DNA from: a virus
Taxonomy: Duplodnaviria; Heunggongvirae; Uroviricota; Caudoviricetes
Length of the DNA stretch: 8,478 bases
Direction: 5' to 3' (one strand)
Virus record (IMG/VR): IMGVR_UViG_2541047850_000013
The notes beneath the pieces were generated by a model. That model had not been told where the DNA came from, ran no database searches, and saw nothing but the letters and a program-made list of their open reading frames with translations. A program made the translations under genes and the position numbers. Below are positions 752 through 7,342 of the stretch, piece after piece (within the stretch, counting starts at the first letter, position 1; each line of letters opens with the position of its first letter).

Positions 752-783
752 AAAAAACAAAACCCGCCGAAGCGGGTTTTTTG
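752..783. terminator. Bidirectional rho-independent terminator closing the methyltransferase cassette
   Basis: GC-rich hairpin AAACCCGC-CGAA-GCGGGTTT (760..779) with an A-run on the 5' side and a T-run on the 3' side, so either strand reads stem-loop followed by a U-tract. Sits 12 nt past the methyltransferase stop. Confidence 0.75.
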
Positions 784-794
784 TACATATAGAA

Positions 795-1892
795 TTATGG
801 TATTAATCCAGCTGTTCTTGCTTTATTAATATAATTTTTACAGTGGTTAGCCAAATACTCTGCAAACTTGCATGGAAGTGCATTTCCTATTATGACGCAT
901 ACTTTATCCATCAAAGCTGTATCAAACACATAGTTATCAGGAAAAGTCTGTAGTCTAGCAGCTTCTCGAACAGAAATAGTACGCGTATCCTCAGGATGTC
1001 CATATCGCCCACGGCTTAAAGTTGTGCACCCACCTGTAATCGTAGGCGATACGTCATCCCAAAGCATACGACCATAAACATTACTAAATCCTTTATAGTC
1101 GCCTTTATGGCAATCTGGACGGAGTTCTTCGGGAATACACTCCCAAGACATCCCTGGAACAGCCGCTTGTAACCGCTTTATATTGATCTCAGACAAATCC
1201 CTAACAATATGCCAACTCGACAATGGAAACTTCCCTTGCTTCTTAGCCTGTGAAAGAGTTAAGGGTTTTGGCATATCTCCAATAGCTTCTTTAACAGTTA
1301 CCCATTTGGGTTTCTCTCTTCCATCCTTAGAGTGTGATCCATCAGGCAATGGGATGGCAAATCCTTTTCCTGCCAACAGAACAAGCCTTTTTCTGAACTG
1401 TGGTACACCAAAGTCAGCTACTTGCAAAACTCCATAATTAACTATGTAACCAAGTTTTTTCAATCTCTCAATTACTGGCGAAAGAAGATGATTTCCCCGG
1501 GAAGCTAATCCAGGAACATTTTCCATCATGATTGCTGATGGATTGGTTTCTTCAACCAACCGTAACATCTCGTTAATCAATAAATTACGAGGGTCCTCCC
1601 TTTTATACTTGGCAGTGAGACTAGTAAATCCTTGACATGGCGGGCACGCAGATAAAAGATCTAAATGTTGCTCAGGGATAAGATTTAGGATATCACTCCC
1701 CTTTACAAACCGAATATCTTGAACAAAGAGTTTTGTCTCACGATGATTTGCTTGGAAAGTAGCGGCGGCATGTGCGTCCAGTTCAACGGCAGCTTTGACA
1801 TCAAACCCGGCCATTTTTAGTCCCATGGTTAGTCCCCCACCACCGCTAAATAGGTCAACTGCATTCAAACTGGTCACTGTTTTCTCACTCAT
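795..1892 (-). CDS. DNA (cytosine-5)-methyltransferase, 365 aa
   Basis: All diagnostic C5-MTase motifs in canonical order: motif I DLFSGGGG (aa 13-20, AdoMet binding), motif IV PPCQGF with catalytic Cys86, motif VI ENV (aa 124-126), motif VIII QFRKR (aa 165-169), motif IX RTISVREAARLQTFPDNY, motif X GNALP (aa 336-340). A variable target-recognition region lies between motifs VIII and IX. ATG at 1892 overlaps the upstream gene's stop. Confidence 0.93.
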   Translation of the reverse strand: MSEKTVTSLNAVDLFSGGGGLTMGLKMAGFDVKAAVELDAHAAATFQANHRETKLFVQDIRFVKGSDILNLIPEQHLDLLSACPPCQGFTSLTAKYKREDPRNLLINEMLRLVEETNPSAIMMENVPGLASRGNHLLSPVIERLKKLGYIVNYGVLQVADFGVPQFRKRLVLLAGKGFAIPLPDGSHSKDGREKPKWVTVKEAIGDMPKPLTLSQAKKQGKFPLSSWHIVRDLSEINIKRLQAAVPGMSWECIPEELRPDCHKGDYKGFSNVYGRMLWDDVSPTITGGCTTLSRGRYGHPEDTRTISVREAARLQTFPDNYVFDTALMDKVCVIIGNALPCKFAEYLANHCKNYINKARTAGLIP

Positions 1893-3996
1893 TATTTCCC
1901 AACTTCAACTGTTCTGCCTCATCCAAGAATTCTTGGTGAGTTTGAGTTGTCCTCAGCAAGAACCCTGCCCAATCAACGGGTGTTAGGCGTTTTTCTTCGA
2001 TGTATGCAGTATAAGCTTTACGACGTGCCCCACTCAAGCGCTCCCCATCACTTACCAGCGTAACGTGAAAATCAGATGCTATTGATTTAAAATCATTATG
2101 TCTCTCATCGTTCAAAAACTCCTCGAATGTTTCGAAGTAATTAATAATACGATCCATTTCATCATTGGAAATATAATGATGTGGCTTTTTTATTTCAATT
2201 ATTTGTAATTTTCCATCCTGACTAAACAATACAAAGTCTGGTCTTTTATTTTTTTTATCAAAATCTATAAGAAATATCTCCTCACCAGTTTTCTTTTTAT
2301 AAAATTTTTGAAATTCCCTTTTAAGCGTGGACAACGTTTTATTTGCTGTAACTGGGACCCATTGAGGGTTAACTAGCCACGGAGCGGATGCAATTAGATC
2401 TTGTAACTCATCTTCTGCTGTATCCTTTGCGTCTTTTAAAGACTCGAGACGCTCAATAATCTGAAGACGCTTTTTGACCTTTTGACCAAAACTAACGGTT
2501 TCAGCTAGTTGAGCCGTTGCTAAAATATCGTTGAGAACATTGAGCGGTGTATCCGCTTTACTGGAAGCTTCTATTAACTTCTCATCTAAGGATTGTAATG
2601 GTGCTAACATAATACTTAACTGCACTAAATTCTCGAGTGCATCAGGATCATGTAATTCATCACCTCGTAAAGATTTACCCAACAACTTGGCTATTTTTTT
2701 AGCCTGTGCTCGCATATCCTTTTGACCGGCTCCAGGGTATGCTTGCTCGACCTTATCCTCCACTTGCGCTAATTCGAAGAATTGATTCATCATATTATTT
2801 CTAAGGGGGTCGCGAGTTATTTTACCCACAAGTAAAATAACTTCTTGCCCCCAATTCTGAAATTGCGTTCCTAAATCATCAGACCATAGAATATCCCTTC
2901 TATCAGTTTGGATAAGATCTTCTTTTTCGTCTAACCAGTCAGCATGCAACTCACCTACCAAATATGAACGTATAGAGTGCTCTCCAGTAAAACCAGCTTT
3001 TCTATTAAAAACTGCTGTTTGCGCAGCAAACTTACCTCGGCAATAAATTCTAACACCTGCCATTAACTCGTCCTTATAAGGCTCTTTCGCGTATGCAATC
3101 CAACCTAATATCGGGTAAGCTTTCCCTTCATGTTCAAAACCGGCCTTAACAATTGATGAACGCGTGCCGTCAGGATTAAAAGCCGTATAATCACTTAAAT
3201 CCGTACAAGAATCTGTCGCAATACTTCCACTCATGGAACGAAATTCAATTTTAGAGTTAGGCATAACAGGAACAGTAAACTCTCCGACCTCAACTTCATA
3301 GTCAGGATTAGACTTTGTTTTCGAAGTATCAATCAGTTTAATATTCCAGTTTTTACTCTTCACTCCAAAACGTTGTGAAAGCTGCCGAGATAAATCTTTT
3401 ATTTCGCTAATTTTTCTATATTCAAAATCACTTAATATTATTTTAGTATAGGTCCTGTCACTTAGTGTGCCGTCTAAATCCCCAGTTTCCGGTTTATAAG
3501 ACACTGCAGTATCATCCATTATTTTTTCTTTATCTAGCTGAATATGAGCAACCTCATACCCTTCCTTTCCATCACGACTGATTTTTTCCCCACCGGCACT
3601 TATAATCTCGACCCTTTTACAAACACCAAAAGGTGCTAATTTCCCAACGCCTTTCCGTCCCATGACTTTGCGGTGAAACACCTTCGAGGTTTCACCTCTT
3701 TTTGGATCCTTACGTCTTTCTTTGCCAACAACCAAATAAAAGTTCTGTAGTTCATCAGGCGCCATTCCGACGCCATTATCTTCTACTTCTATTGTGACAT
3801 TTTTTGACCTGACAACACCATCCTGTCTAACAGCCAAGTATTGGCCCATAGGTGCTTTTATAGTGACATTAGTCGCATCTGCATCGTAACTGTTAGATAC
3901 TAATTCGGCTATAACAGCATAAGCCCTGTCATATAATTTCACACCTAATTTATCTACTGTCATCCTTGATATCTGCATTTCATATTGACGCGCCAT
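1885..3996 (-). CDS. GHKL-superfamily (MutL/MORC-like) ATPase with central helical region and C-terminal PD-(D/E)xK-like nuclease motif, 703 aa; candidate restriction/effector subunit
   Basis: ATG at 3996 with AGGA 7 nt upstream. Bergerat-fold motifs: N-box ELVSNSYDAD (aa 31-40), G1 box DNGVGM (aa 73-78), G2 box GRKGVGKLAPFG (aa 113-124). Residues about 440-540 are charged, helix-prone and coiled-coil-like. C-terminus GEEIFLIDFDKKNKRPDFVLFSQDGKLQIIEIKKP gives E573...PD587...E601-x-K603. Stop overlaps the methyltransferase start by 8 nt (ATGAGTGA). Confidence 0.85.
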   Translation of the reverse strand: MARQYEMQISRMTVDKLGVKLYDRAYAVIAELVSNSYDADATNVTIKAPMGQYLAVRQDGVVRSKNVTIEVEDNGVGMAPDELQNFYLVVGKERRKDPKRGETSKVFHRKVMGRKGVGKLAPFGVCKRVEIISAGGEKISRDGKEGYEVAHIQLDKEKIMDDTAVSYKPETGDLDGTLSDRTYTKIILSDFEYRKISEIKDLSRQLSQRFGVKSKNWNIKLIDTSKTKSNPDYEVEVGEFTVPVMPNSKIEFRSMSGSIATDSCTDLSDYTAFNPDGTRSSIVKAGFEHEGKAYPILGWIAYAKEPYKDELMAGVRIYCRGKFAAQTAVFNRKAGFTGEHSIRSYLVGELHADWLDEKEDLIQTDRRDILWSDDLGTQFQNWGQEVILLVGKITRDPLRNNMMNQFFELAQVEDKVEQAYPGAGQKDMRAQAKKIAKLLGKSLRGDELHDPDALENLVQLSIMLAPLQSLDEKLIEASSKADTPLNVLNDILATAQLAETVSFGQKVKKRLQIIERLESLKDAKDTAEDELQDLIASAPWLVNPQWVPVTANKTLSTLKREFQKFYKKKTGEEIFLIDFDKKNKRPDFVLFSQDGKLQIIEIKKPHHYISNDEMDRIINYFETFEEFLNDERHNDFKSIASDFHVTLVSDGERLSGARRKAYTAYIEEKRLTPVDWAGFLLRTTQTHQEFLDEAEQLKLGNNE

Positions 3997-4090
3997 TTAA
4001 ATATCCTTCTAAAAGAGTATTTTTTGCTCAAAAAGGGGAAGTTTATGTTTGACTAACATAGCAAAAAAACTTTCATCTTCAAGAGGTTCA
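3997..4090 (-). promoter_or_regulatory. RBS and AT-rich putative promoter region for the ATPase/methyltransferase cassette
   Basis: AGGA at 4004..4007 (minus strand), 7 nt from the ATG. Upstream sequence is very A+T-rich with weak sigma70-like hexamers (for example TTGAAG-16-TATGTT on the minus strand). No single convincing -35/-10 pair. Confidence 0.3.
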
Positions 4091-4343
4091 CACCAAAAGA
4101 ATTTACCTGGTTCACATAACCAGCTGGATTAGTGTTGAGTTTTGGGTAAACCTGAGGATTGAGAAACCAGTACTGATAAATGGGTATCCGCTGTTTTCGT
4201 CCCTCTCCTGAGCTACCGTGTATTGAAATGGCATCGACACTATTACATGGTAGGAGGTTGTATGTATGGTTTAGATATTTTGCATCTTTCACAGACACTT
4301 TTTACCTTTGCCATATCCTTCCACATTGTTTCTCCGGAAATCA

Positions 4344-4511
4344 CTAACGGTTTGGCATTTGCAGAACCATTATCAGCCATAGCTTCTTGCCGTTAACTTC
4401 GGTTGCACCTGATTGTTGCTCACCTTCAGGCAATGATGGGTTATATACACGGACTGAGCTCACTGCAGTAACAACCTTCCCAGTCAACTTACCTATGCTT
4501 TCAACCATCAT
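4344..4511 (-). CDS. Small hypothetical ORF (55 aa); coding status doubtful
   Basis: ORF-track ORF 4344..4565 trimmed to the first ATG (MMVESIGKL...); listed start is TTG. Weak RBS, and an alternative 46-codon ORF (4240..4380, minus strand) overlaps in another frame. Confidence 0.2.
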   Translation of the reverse strand: MMVESIGKLTGKVVTAVSSVRVYNPSLPEGEQQSGATEVNGKKLWLIMVLQMPNR

Positions 4512-4572
4512 CGTAGCGGCATACTTCCGAATTGCTATTATTTCAATTCTGCACCGTTTGCTCAATGTAACG

Positions 4573-5023: not shown

Positions 5024-5986
5024 TTACCCCCTGAAGCCCGGCGGAATTTCAGTGTCCGGTTCAGAAATGTGATTCACGCAACGCTGCGCAGGCGAACGCC
5101 CCAGGCGGATAACCAGTTCATCCCATTTTTCCCGGAGTTTTGCCGGACTCATGATGTTTTTTACCCAGAACGAATCCCGCTGGAGACGCCCAAACATTTC
5201 ACAAATTTGTCTGTGAGTTCTGCCATCCAGCATCCGCATTGTGCGAACGTCATTGGCCCATGCTGTCCAGTTGGGTTCTTTCGGTCTAGTGATCTCGCCA
5301 TCATAGCTGGCCGCCTGCTCGTAAAGACTCACGATTCGTCCCCAGATCCACTGTGCGCACACCAAATCTTCCTGACTTCCCCACTGGCGTTTTTTCGCAC
5401 TGAACACAACCGCGTCAGGGTGTCGGGTTAAAAAATCCTGTTCAGCCGTCTGCGGGTCCGGTTGCGAAGCGTCAGGACAAGAAGATCTTTTATCTGACGG
5501 ATCAGGTTTTAATACTGACGGATCGGGGTCAATCATCGCCCCCCTAATCGGCAGTTTTTTATCAACAGTTGATCCATCAAAATTTGACGGGTCAACCGTT
5601 GAGGGGTCAATATTTGACGGGTCAACTGTTAACGGGTCATTTTTTGCCGGGCTAATTTTTCTTTTCGGTTTATATGACTCACGCGCCGCCGCCGCAGCTG
5701 CTTCGAGTTTTTCCACATTAAGTCGATAGATATTGCTTACATTACGCCCACCGACCTTACGCTCTTCCTTCGTCAGCCAGCCCTCTTTCGCCAGTTCTGC
5801 AATAGCCGATTTCACTGTGGATTCACTTCTTGCACCGATCTGACGCCGGATAGTTTCAATGGCAGGCCATGACACGCCCTCGTCATTGCTGTAGTCTGCA
5901 AGACGGGCCATAACCGCCACCCTGGATAAGATCATGCCGGTGAAGGCGCACCCTTCCCAGACAAGACCATGAAGCTTGCTGCTCAT
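5024..5986 (-). CDS. Phage replication initiator (lambda O-like / replisome organiser) with N-terminal winged-HTH domain and internal repeat linker, about 320 aa
   Basis: ATG at 5986 preceded by G-rich RBS (alternative GTG at 6001). N-terminus MARLADYSNDEGVSWPAIETIRRQIGARSESTVKSAIAELAKEGWL is typical of phage replication-initiator HTH domains. The linker carries 5-aa repeats (VDPSN-like) encoded by 15-bp DNA iterons. Follows the cro-like and YdaT-like genes as O follows cro-cII in lambda. Confidence 0.75.
   Translation of the reverse strand: MSSKLHGLVWEGCAFTGMILSRVAVMARLADYSNDEGVSWPAIETIRRQIGARSESTVKSAIAELAKEGWLTKEERKVGGRNVSNIYRLNVEKLEAAAAAARESYKPKRKISPAKNDPLTVDPSNIDPSTVDPSNFDGSTVDKKLPIRGAMIDPDPSVLKPDPSDKRSSCPDASQPDPQTAEQDFLTRHPDAVVFSAKKRQWGSQEDLVCAQWIWGRIVSLYEQAASYDGEITRPKEPNWTAWANDVRTMRMLDGRTHRQICEMFGRLQRDSFWVKNIMSPAKLREKWDELVIRLGRSPAQRCVNHISEPDTEIPPGFRG
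5569..5675. repeat. Putative origin of replication: six 15-bp-spaced iterons plus adjacent A+T-rich tract, inside the replication gene
   Basis: Direct repeats at exact 15-bp period starting 5569, 5584, 5599, 5614, 5629, 5644: TTGATCCATCAA, TTGACGGGTCAA, TTGAGGGGTCAA, TTGACGGGTCAA, TTAACGGGTCAT, TTGCCGGGCTAA. Each is an imperfect palindrome (TTGAC..GTCAA). A+T-rich tract follows (about 5640..5675). Confidence 0.6.
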
Positions 5987-6008
5987 AAAACCCCCGAACA
6001 CCGTGCTT

Positions 6009-6434
6009 TTAGTGCATCACCACAGCATTCCCTGCCGGGCCGCCGCGATTCATCTGGTCATACAAAACAACCGCTGACGCAACAAAATCATCGACATCCT
6101 TCACCAGCCGATCCCTCCGTTCGACGATCTCACGGTAATATTCAGAACTGTGGCTGCGCATACGGGCCACCAGCAAAGGCGGCATCGCCTTTTCGATCGC
6201 CGGTAACAGAGCCTGCATTTTTTCAACAGCATCAGGGGTGTCTTTATCCAGCCAACGGAAAATTTTCTGGGTATTACGGGCCAGGGCTTCCGGATGGCTG
6301 TCGTCGTACAGTTCAGGGAACGTCATCCCCAGTTCGAAATAAGTCCGGGCTATTTCAGCTGCAGGAACTTTCTCACCATCAGGGTATGCCCAGGCATTCA
6401 TCGCCATGCGGATGTGCTCATGTTTGATTTTCAT
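6009..6434 (-). CDS. ydaT: YdaT-like protein (occupies the cII position; family reported toxic when derepressed in Rac prophage), 141 aa
   Basis: ATG at 6434 with AGAGG RBS; N-terminus MKIKHEHI... recalled as characteristic of YdaT-family proteins. Overlaps the upstream cro-like gene by 17 nt. Family assignment is from memory, not a search. Confidence 0.65.
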   Translation of the reverse strand: MKIKHEHIRMAMNAWAYPDGEKVPAAEIARTYFELGMTFPELYDDSHPEALARNTQKIFRWLDKDTPDAVEKMQALLPAIEKAMPPLLVARMRSHSSEYYREIVERRDRLVKDVDDFVASAVVLYDQMNRGGPAGNAVVMH

Positions 6435-6741
6435 GAATCATTTGCCTCTTGATGCTTCGGGTATGATCGTTTTCGTCATTTGGTTGCTTCATCGACATAT
6501 TCTGCGAATAACATGACGAGCGTCGTAAGTATGTCCAATCAACATCAGGACGAAGTTCTTCACACAGGACACCACCTTTTGTTGCTCGTTCAATCGCAGG
6601 ACATCTCTCAGCAGGTAACTGACGTACACCTTTGATCCATTGATTTACGCTTGGAGGAGATACACCTAAAAGCCTAGCCATTGCTGATTGCCCACCGACA
6701 ACAGCACAAGCTCGTTTGAATGAATAGTTATCTTTTTTCAT
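6418..6741 (-). CDS. ydaS: Cro-like HTH regulator of the YdaS family, 107 aa
   Basis: ATG at 6741 with GGAG 8 nt upstream (ORF-track start at 6762 is GTG and was trimmed). HTH region QSAMARLLGVSPPSVNQWIKG followed by the LPAERCPAIERAT motif recalled from YdaS/Cro-like proteins. Divergent from the repressor gene. Confidence 0.8.
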   Translation of the reverse strand: MKKDNYSFKRACAVVGGQSAMARLLGVSPPSVNQWIKGVRQLPAERCPAIERATKGGVLCEELRPDVDWTYLRRSSCYSQNMSMKQPNDENDHTRSIKRQMIHENQT

Positions 6742-6768
6742 CGAATGAACTCCAAAAAACACGCAACA

Positions 6769-6865: not shown

Positions 6866-7342
6866 ATGCTTAGTGGTAAAGACTTAGGCCGAGCGATAGA
6901 GCAGGCCATTAACAAAAAAATTGCATCAGGAGCCGTCAAATCAAAGGCGGAAATCGCACGTCATTTCAAAGTCCAACCACCATCAATCCATGACTGGATT
7001 AAGAAAGGTTCGATAAGTAAAGACAAACTTCCAGAACTATGGCGTTTCTTTTCTGATGTGGTTGGTCCAGAGCATTGGGGGCTTAACGAATACCCCATAC
7101 CAACCCCATCCACTTCAGATACAAAAAGTGAACTTTTAGACATAAACAGCCTTTATCAAGCCGCCTCTGATGAAAAAAAAGCAATTGTGGCTTTCATCTT
7201 ATCTGGAAATGCTACGGAGCCTAGTTGGGTTGATTATGACGTTCGCGCCTACATTGCCGCAATGGAAATGAAGGTAGCTAACTATCTGAAAAATCAAGAA
7301 TCAAAACGGAAAAGCCAGAACATCACCAAGACAGGAACTTAA
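6866..7342 (+). CDS. racR: CI-like prophage repressor, RacR-like, without an autocleavage domain, 158 aa
   Basis: ATG at 6866 with GGAG upstream. N-terminal HTH KSKAEIARHFKVQPPSIHDWIKKG. No S24 peptidase (LexA-like Ser/Lys) motifs visible. Divergent from the YdaS/YdaT-like genes and flanked by operator sets on both sides; length matches RacR as recalled. Confidence 0.8.
   Translation: MLSGKDLGRAIEQAINKKIASGAVKSKAEIARHFKVQPPSIHDWIKKGSISKDKLPELWRFFSDVVGPEHWGLNEYPIPTPSTSDTKSELLDINSLYQAASDEKKAIVAFILSGNATEPSWVDYDVRAYIAAMEMKVANYLKNQESKRKSQNITKTGT

Follow-up and report, generated by a model that had tools for sequence, protein, structure and literature searches.

A prophage-borne nuclease with a MutL/MORC-like ATPase domain and its C5 methylase neighbor: a probable Type II-like restriction-modification cassette

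INTRODUCTION

Fusions of a GHKL ATPase domain to a nuclease are established in restriction-modification (R-M) and defense loci: REBASE, NCBIfam, and PHROGs record them, and the paraMORC3 and Shedu type I-D classifications cover them. Here, we analyzed such a fusion, a protein of 703 amino acids (aa) encoded next to a C5 cytosine DNA methyltransferase in a stretch of 8,478 nucleotides (nt) of viral DNA (Caudoviricetes; IMG/VR record IMGVR_UViG_2541047850_000013), the whole of which is called the window hereafter. The protein belongs to an already known family, in which it represents an uncharacterized subfamily, and it does not found a new kind of system. Together, the two genes probably make up a Type II-like R-M cassette carried by a prophage, with the 703-aa protein as its restriction subunit.

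In 2008, Orlowski and Bujnicki noted the GHKL domain of R.HgiDII and four other restriction endonuclease (REase) subfamilies sharing such a domain, one of them with a PD-(D/E)XK C terminus (PMC2441816). In the same year, Iyer, Abhiman, and Aravind described, under the names MORC and paraMORC1-5, proteins of R-M systems that combine GHKL and S5 domains, among which paraMORC3 is defined by a C-terminal nuclease of the REase fold with an E-D-ExK motif and occurs either with methylases and Vsr or alone (PMC2292703). The clustering of HATPase_c_3 proteins with C5 methylases was noted again in a 2021 study (PMC8011034). In 2023, Gu et al. listed, among the classes of Shedu type 1D, the combination of a GHKL domain (HATPase_c_3), an Hsp90/MORC-like middle domain, and DUF4263 (PMC10441436). 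Adams et al. then showed in 2025 that Vibrio cholerae VcSduA, which has this architecture, protects both Escherichia coli and V. cholerae from phages, defense being abolished by E27A, designed to disrupt ATP hydrolysis, as well as by K557A in the nuclease (PMC12137116). The class of ATP-site mutants that a sequence-only reading of the window had proposed has thus already been made in VcSduA. The same reading had described GHKL ATPases as rare in bacterial DNA-targeting immune systems, which was an overstatement given R.HgiDII and the four subfamilies of 2008, paraMORC1-5 of the same year, and the GHKL-Shedu fusions of 2023.

RESULTS

The 703-aa protein is encoded on the minus strand (Table 1). 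The interval 3592-3924, coding for aa 25 to 135, contains the N-box, G1, and G2 strings listed by the sequence-only reading, with the residue numbers given there (N35 and D73 are correct) and with no strand stated; the plus strand of this interval holds no noteworthy open reading frame (ORF). An AAGGA ribosome-binding site lies 8 nt 5' of the ATG of the nuclease gene. The protein corresponds to RefSeq WP_021548141.1, annotated "ATP-binding protein," and matches phrog_6203 over its full length (E 9e-78), a family labeled "unknown function" in PHROGs. Of 5426 complete E. coli genomes, 21 carry the identical nuclease and methylase pair, whose annotation goes no further than "ATP-binding protein" and "DNA cytosine methyltransferase." The family comprises 217 cluster representatives at E <=1e-30 and 1083 at E <=1e-10, and its members are also plasmid-borne, including on haloarchaeal plasmids. 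Conservation was read from 42 homologues at 52 to 91% identity and from 10 remote relatives at 20 to 40% identity.

By profile, residue pairing, and predicted fold, the ATP-binding head proves to be a GHKL ATPase of the Bergerat fold, with a MutL/MORC-like arrangement, and not a P-loop NTPase, as the sequence-only reading had proposed. Pfam HATPase_c_3 matched aa 28 to 140 with an E value of 7.2e-19 (68.6 bits for a cut-off of 25), and HATPase_c matched the protein at E 1.5e-6. When the profile of the 42 homologues was aligned with E. coli MutL by hhalign (probability 90%), E31, N35, and D73 paired with E29, N33, and D58; with E. coli HtpG (probability 93%), E31 and N35 paired with E34 and N38, and the G2 box with the lid GQFGVGFYSAF. 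Moreover, E31, N35, D38, D73, G75, G77, K115, G116, G118, and T184 are invariant in the 42 homologues and the 10 remote relatives; in both sets K119 of the G2 box is likewise invariant, and G113 and G124, as well as G183 beside T184 in the motif IV region, are nearly so. Because of the Pfam E values, the residue pairing with MutL and HtpG, and these invariant residues, the match is not a chance one. The features expected of GHKL membership are thereby present together, namely ExxxNxxD as motif I, DxGxG as motif II, a glycine-rich lid as motif III, and the motif IV threonine, within an overall Bergerat fold.

The segment preceding motif I, MARQYEMQISRMTVDKLGVKLYDR, is also highly conserved: T13, D15, K16, L17, G18, V19, L21, Y22, and D23 are invariant in the 42 homologues, and hhalign aligns the segment with SLYSNKEIFLRELISN of HtpG. 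By analogy with what is known of the GHKL family, aa 1 to 24 are a candidate dimerization strap. Among solved structures, Hsp90 N-domains are the closest in sequence, the full-length profile having matched only Hsp90 and MutL N-domains in PDB; with E. coli GyrB, hhalign gave no meaningful alignment of the family profile.

Three other identities were considered for the ATP-binding head and rejected. For a P-loop ATPase, no such family is among the listed Pfam matches of the protein, and NCBIfam gives a single marginal match to P_loop_sacsin, the sacsin N-terminal ATP-binding-like domain, below threshold (E 6e-4, 20 bits for a cut-off of 50). A true MutL is excluded by the TIGR00585 score of 25.1 bits against a cut-off of 180, aa 23 to 85 alone being aligned, and by the lack of a MutL_C match in Pfam. 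For a true HtpG/Hsp90, the scores are 39.7 against 455 (PRK14083) and 24.5 against 371 (PRK05218), and the N-domain alone aligns.

An AlphaFold2 model of the full protein was built as a monomer on the 42-sequence alignment. Foldseek comparison of this model with PDB returned exclusively GHKL ATPases as top matches (TRAP1/Hsp90, MLH1, SMCHD1, GyrB, MutL, and MORC2), over 400 to 500 aligned columns, which argues that the first ~290 residues would form a two-domain MutL/MORC-type ATPase module. The G2 lid stretch (G113-RK-G116-V-G118-KLAPF-G124) has a low predicted local distance difference test score (pLDDT) in the model. The hhalign alignments end at aa 139 (HtpG) and aa 84 (MutL), short of the middle domain, in which the basic residues R316, R320, and K322 and the loop from Q363 to D368 (QTDRRD) are invariant. 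Any one of them could provide the gamma-phosphate sensor. The helical linker that follows had no family match over aa ~373 to 545; judging from its modeled helices, it may serve as a clamp arm or as a DNA-binding surface.

The C-terminal domain is assigned as a PD-(D/E)xK nuclease of the Shedu type. The PADLOC SduA model matched aa 507 to 607 (E 1.7e-5), and Pfam SduA_C matched 20 of 21 family members, with a best E value of 7.6e-7; HSDR_N and HSDR_N_2 of Pfam gave weak matches on the 703-aa protein. A separate model of aa 501 to 703 reached a pLDDT of 83, and its best fold match in PDB was the Bacillus cereus Shedu nuclease (8ti9_C, E 5.8e-4), followed by the nuclease domains of MspJI, N.BspD6I, and FokI. 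Because a profile of the C-terminal domain found no match among PDB sequences, Shedu included, support for this assignment comes from the PADLOC and Pfam profiles together with the fold search. By motif and conservation, E561, D587, and E601-I-K603 make up the canonical PD-(D/E)xK set and are the catalytic candidates. This nuclease, together with the paired C5 methyltransferase, bears out the DNA-targeting immune context that the sequence-only reading had assumed.

The methylase gene follows directly, its start overlapping the nuclease stop by 8 nt (ATGAGTGA, nt 1885-1892). The product matches Pfam DNA_methylase (E 6e-58) and PADLOC MTase_II (E 9e-91), and all classical methylase motifs are present in its translation (FSGGGG, PPCQGF, ENV, QFRKR, REAARLQTFPD, and GNALP); the enzyme is apparently active. 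Linkage was surveyed at 80 loci from species-representative genomes of many phyla, 78 of which were informative. In 75 of these 78, an orthologous methylase gene (48 to 68% identity) comes immediately after the nuclease gene on the same strand, the median gap being 16 nt, and the remaining 3 have a divergent C5 methylase inside the 5-kb flank. Among nine remote relatives sampled (20 to 40% identity), seven adjoin a C5 methylase, placed upstream, downstream, or convergent; Vsr is also present in two of the seven and an HhH-GPD glycosylase in one, companions that we regard as typical of 5-methylcytosine (5mC) R-M systems. The window methylase is 37% identical to that of phage PhiR44_1, a likeness that takes in the variable region lying between motifs VIII and IX. 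Judged from these loci, the linkage of the nuclease to a C5 methylase is tight and ancient, and the 75/78 linkage, its persistence in remote relatives, and the methylase identity to the PhiR44_1 partner together suggest that the R and M genes diverged as a pair. One of the marks of a Type II R-M system, a nuclease gene co-inherited with a neighboring methyltransferase gene, is present here.

Vsr and the HhH-GPD glycosylase, as T:G mismatch repair companions, adjoin the methylase in the metagenomic relatives that have them; the window cassette has neither. The best sigma-70-like site of the region lies inside the nuclease gene, at 2170-2198 on the minus strand (TTGAAA, 17 nt, TATATT; 10/12), ~280 nt 5' of the methylase start. 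This site could drive the methylase independently, but the promoter-like sites of the region are no more numerous than in shuffled sequence (10 found in the scan, 10.0 expected).

Compared with described families, the protein aligns nearly end to end with NCBIfam NF050001, "BbrUII/HgiDII family restriction enzyme" (aa 5 to 697 on profile positions 1 to 648 of 659, E 3.2e-70), with a score below the equivalog cut-off. A protein of the P2-like phage PhiR44_1 (PV340563.1 7111-9069), annotated "ParaMORC3" by its depositors and adjoining a "Dcm protein," scores 751 bits with NF050001. The window family aligns with it by hhalign at a probability of 99.7% over 545 columns, with the N-terminal segment, every ATPase motif, and the nuclease motif RxD...EXK included. 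On the strength of the full-length, below-cut-off NF050001 alignment and of this hhalign result, the window protein is a sister subfamily in the superfamily that holds R.HgiDII and R.BbrUII. With these enzymes it shares full-length homology, the N-terminal GHKL domain, the same RPDF...EIK nuclease motif, and a C5 methyltransferase partner; in contrast, it is only about 23 to 25% identical to an NF050001-passing member, and its recognition sequence need not be GTCGAC. Beside this, P2-like phages PhiR44_1 and Yersinia phage P37 carry distant homologues of the nuclease (23 to 26% identity), each with its own C5 methylase, in the variable region beside the replication gene gpA. The activity of M.BbrUII is disputed, being given as a 5mC methyltransferase homologous to M.HgiDII (PMC5867850) or as N6-adenine methylation (PMC5829577).

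The likeness to paraMORC3 lies in the succession of GHKL, putative S5-type domain, and C-terminal restriction-fold nuclease, in the E-D-ExK motif, represented here by E561, D587, and E601-x-K603, and in a sporadic, laterally mobile distribution, either standalone or beside DNA methylases and Vsr. Membership in this group is argued from the architecture, the motif pattern, and the homology to the annotated "ParaMORC3" member. VcSduA, compared by description and not by sequence, likewise has N-terminal GHKL motifs I to IV, a clamp-like middle domain, and a C-terminal DUF4263 nuclease, its motif I glutamate E27 corresponding to E31 here and its nuclease lysine K557 to K603. Unlike VcSduA, a single gene with no methylase, the window protein shares an operon with a C5 methylase that co-diverges with it; of the two marks of Shedu type I-D, it has the SduA_C/DUF4263 nuclease domain and lacks the single-gene organization, the methylase operon being found in 75 of 78 informative genomes. 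In B. cereus Shedu SduA (PDB 8ti8, 8ti9), the N-terminal sensor region is unrelated to the GHKL ATPase. Compared with MORC3/MORC2, SMCHD1, and MutL, the window protein lacks the CW zinc finger, the coiled-coil insert, the hinge, and the MutL C-terminal endonuclease/dimerization domain and has a PD-(D/E)xK nuclease instead.

Table 1. Features of the nuclease-methylase cassette, by position in the window
Feature	Position (nt)	Strand	Remarks
Upstream leader, about 120 nt	3997..4119	-	Moves with the cassette; presumed promoter and ribosome-binding site region
Restriction-type nuclease gene, 703 aa	1885..3996	-	Order: GHKL ATPase, transducer-like middle domain, helical linker, PD-(D/E)xK nuclease
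N-terminal segment MARQYEMQISRMTVDKLGVKLYDR, aa 1-24	3925..3996	-	Highly conserved; precedes motif I
Bergerat-fold ATP-binding domain, about aa 25-200	3397..3924	-	Contains interval 3592-3924
Motif I / N-box ELVSNSYDAD, aa 31-40	3877..3906	-	E31 candidate general base; N35 Mg2+ ligand; D38
Motif II / G1 box DNGVGM, aa 73-78	3763..3780	-	D73 adenine contact; D73, G75, G77 invariant
Motif III / G2 box GRKGVGKLAPFG, aa 113-124	3625..3660	-	ATP-lid hinge
Motif IV region TYTKIIL (T184)	3433..3453	-	Family consensus TGTxIIL; assigned only from its position and pattern
Middle (transducer / S5-like) domain, about aa 201-372	2881..3396	-	Invariant stretches RIYCRGK and QTDRRD
RIYCRGK, aa 316-322	3031-3051	-	Invariant; candidate gamma-phosphate sensor
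QTDRRD, aa 363-368	2893-2910	-	Invariant; candidate gamma-phosphate sensor
Helical linker, about aa 373-545	2362..2880	-	Long helices 373-409 and 484-522 (AlphaFold2 secondary structure)
PD-(D/E)xK nuclease, Shedu/DUF4263 type, about aa 546-703	1888..2361	-	Profiles and fold search
Candidate catalytic E561	2314-2316	-	Conserved
Candidate catalytic D587 in RPDFV	2230-2244 (RPDFV)	-	Invariant in the 20-40% identity set
Candidate catalytic E601-I-K603	2188-2196	-	E601 invariant, K603 at least 90% conserved (20-40% identity set)
C5 cytosine DNA methyltransferase, 365 aa	795..1892	-	Methylase ATG overlaps nuclease stop codon
Terminator-like hairpin, 9-bp stem then T-run	759..780	-	15 nt past methylase stop; consensus scan only

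The cassette consists of two genes in about 3.4 kb, with a GC content of 0.395 against 0.47 to 0.55 in its flanks. It is inserted in a lambdoid prophage of E. coli, between an immunity/replication block (YdaS/Cro-like, YdaT, O-like, and Ren-like DUF977 genes) and the ydfU/RusA/Q region. In different Citrobacter prophages, an 87%-identical copy occupies the same slot of the nin region, the DNA similarity with the Citrobacter prophage copy running from window position 4119 to 835 at 78% identity and ending there, and a related phage has small toxin and hypothetical genes at the cassette position instead. Because the same slot is filled in different prophages and holds other genes in the related phage, the nuclease-methylase pair behaves, by this distribution, as a mobile moron of the nin region. 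The hairpin past the methylase stop is likely the end of the cassette transcript. In the window, no controller (C) protein was identified and Rfam gave no match; the small ORFs 5' of the nuclease (4053-4298 and 4344-4565) had no PHROG match.

Some features lie outside the cassette. The ~450 nt that separate the cassette leader from the Ren-like DUF977 gene (4120-4572) have neither a family-matching ORF nor an Rfam match; this stretch is not shared with the Citrobacter cassette copy and may be a displaced-moron remnant or a regulatory spacer. Inside the O-like replication gene (5024-6001, minus strand), ~5 to 6 tandem copies of a 15-nt unit resembling TCAACAGTTGACGGG occupy 5562-5660, encode a repeated DPS(N/T)xD peptide, and resemble lambda-type origin iterons within an initiator gene. 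Finally, a 158-aa ORF on the plus strand (6866-7342) occupies the cI-repressor position, divergent from the YdaS/Cro-like gene (6418-6762, minus strand); it shows by eye a helix-turn-helix-like stretch, KAEIARHFKVQPPSIHDWIKKG, and had no Pfam match at E <=0.01 and no PHROG match at E <=0.001.

DISCUSSION

Altogether, the architecture of the 703-aa protein, its full-length homology to a named restriction-enzyme family, and its linkage to a C5 methylase make it probable that this protein is the restriction subunit of a prophage-borne, two-gene, Type II-like R-M cassette. We propose a model in which the translationally coupled C5 methyltransferase would mark host and prophage DNA, while the nuclease domain would cut incoming unmethylated DNA. 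Binding of ATP would shut the lid and dimerize the N-terminal modules, as in MutL, MORC, and Hsp90, and this dimerization would be the switch that places two nuclease domains in a cleavage-competent arrangement on DNA, ATP hydrolysis then resetting the enzyme. ATP dependence, dimerization, methylation sensitivity, cleavage chemistry, and sequence specificity are properties that we infer here, and the "dimerising ATP-dependent clamp" and the "motor" of the sequence-only reading likewise extend to this protein, as what it may be, the behavior of its family.

Several results weigh against this model or against parts of it. The score with NF050001 is 237.4 bits for an equivalog cut-off of 550 bits, so that the protein is not an equivalog of HgiDII/BbrUII; Pfam SduA_C on the copy of the window itself falls short of E 0.1; and the full-length AlphaFold2 model is of moderate quality, with a mean pLDDT of 74.5 and a predicted template modeling score (pTM) of 0.54. 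In the literature, we found no experiment on this protein or its subfamily, no biochemical study of a methyltransferase-linked GHKL restriction enzyme, and no paper on a bacterial MORC defense. Enzymes such as R.HgiDII were assayed without ATP, and the ATP switch may therefore be dispensable for cleavage in vitro. Two of the nine remote relatives (P0145 and P0136) have no adjacent methylase, and VcSduA works without any methylase (PMC12137116), so that the architecture alone does not imply R-M. Moreover, R.HgiDII is tabulated as an orthodox Type II enzyme of subtype P (PMC2441816). Because of this classification, and because the VcSduA architecture functions without methylation, our confidence is lower for an obligatory role of ATP in the enzyme, toward which the balance tips only slightly.

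The alternative that survives best, although unlikely, is an ordinary Mg2+-only Type IIP enzyme in which the GHKL module would be a structural, dimerization, or DNA-binding scaffold and not a working switch. It agrees with the orthodox subtype P of the relative R.HgiDII and with our finding no published ATP requirement for HgiDII/BbrUII-type enzymes. However, the general-base glutamate, the Mg2+ asparagine, the adenine aspartate, the glycine-rich lid, and the motif IV threonine are invariant down to 20% identity, which would be difficult to account for if the protein neither bound nor hydrolyzed nucleotide, and the E27A substitution abolishes defense in the architecturally equivalent VcSduA (PMC12137116).

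We consider it quite improbable that the protein is a self-contained Shedu type I-D nuclease sensing an infection cue through its GHKL domain, next to a methylase with an independent function, e.g., as an orphan or in anti-restriction. VcSduA does defend alone with the same architecture (PMC12137116), this combination is classified as Shedu type 1D by Gu et al. (PMC10441436), and P0145 and P0136 stand without a methylase. Nevertheless, the two genes of the cassette overlap at their start and stop codons, the orthologous methylase accompanies the nuclease in 75 of 78 informative genomes from many phyla, and the linkage persists at 20 to 30% identity despite shuffled gene order and with Vsr or glycosylase companions, R and M genes appearing to have co-diverged.

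Still less credit can be given to a MutL-like repair accessory, which would act in very-short-patch or mismatch repair at 5mC sites rather than as a restriction enzyme. MutL stimulates Vsr in E. coli, the ATPase module is MutL-like, and Vsr or an HhH-GPD glycosylase is found beside some relatives; against this, the protein has no MutL C-terminal domain (TIGR00585, 25 bits for 180) and has its own conserved PD-(D/E)xK nuclease of the defense/restriction type as well as full-length homology to a named restriction-enzyme family, while most loci, the window included, are without Vsr. Finally, a modification-dependent, Type IV-like nuclease acting on foreign modified DNA beside a methylase of other specificity, as the second-best fold match to the modification-dependent MspJI and the proposed Type IV-like nature of some Shedu classes (PMC10441436) might suggest, is scarcely credible, given that no modified-base reader (SRA, EVE, PUA, or DUF262) is among the Pfam, PADLOC, and NCBIfam matches and that to be paired obligately with a C5 methylase that co-diverges is characteristic of modification-protected systems, not of modification-dependent ones.

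Returning to the methylase-protected restriction enzyme, the question raised is the role of an ATP-binding module in such a protein. This role, on which we found no paper, could be an obligatory switch, a clamp for inter-site communication, or a regulator delaying cleavage. A tentative proposal, which we hold to be possible rather than probable, is that the methyltransferase-linked GHKL nucleases form an unrecognized class of ATP-dependent restriction enzymes, in which a MutL/MORC-like clamp must bind ATP and close on DNA before the Shedu-type nuclease cuts. If true, restriction by these enzymes would work differently from the helicase, AAA+, and superfamily 2 (SF2) motors of the Type I, Type III, McrBC, and CglI-like systems, and the class would link classical R-M in evolution to single-gene Shedu defense and to the eukaryotic MORC and SMCHD1 chromatin clamps. 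This compact cassette, native to the tractable host E. coli, represents a convenient model for the role of the GHKL module and a further example of a defense moron in the nin region of lambdoid prophages.

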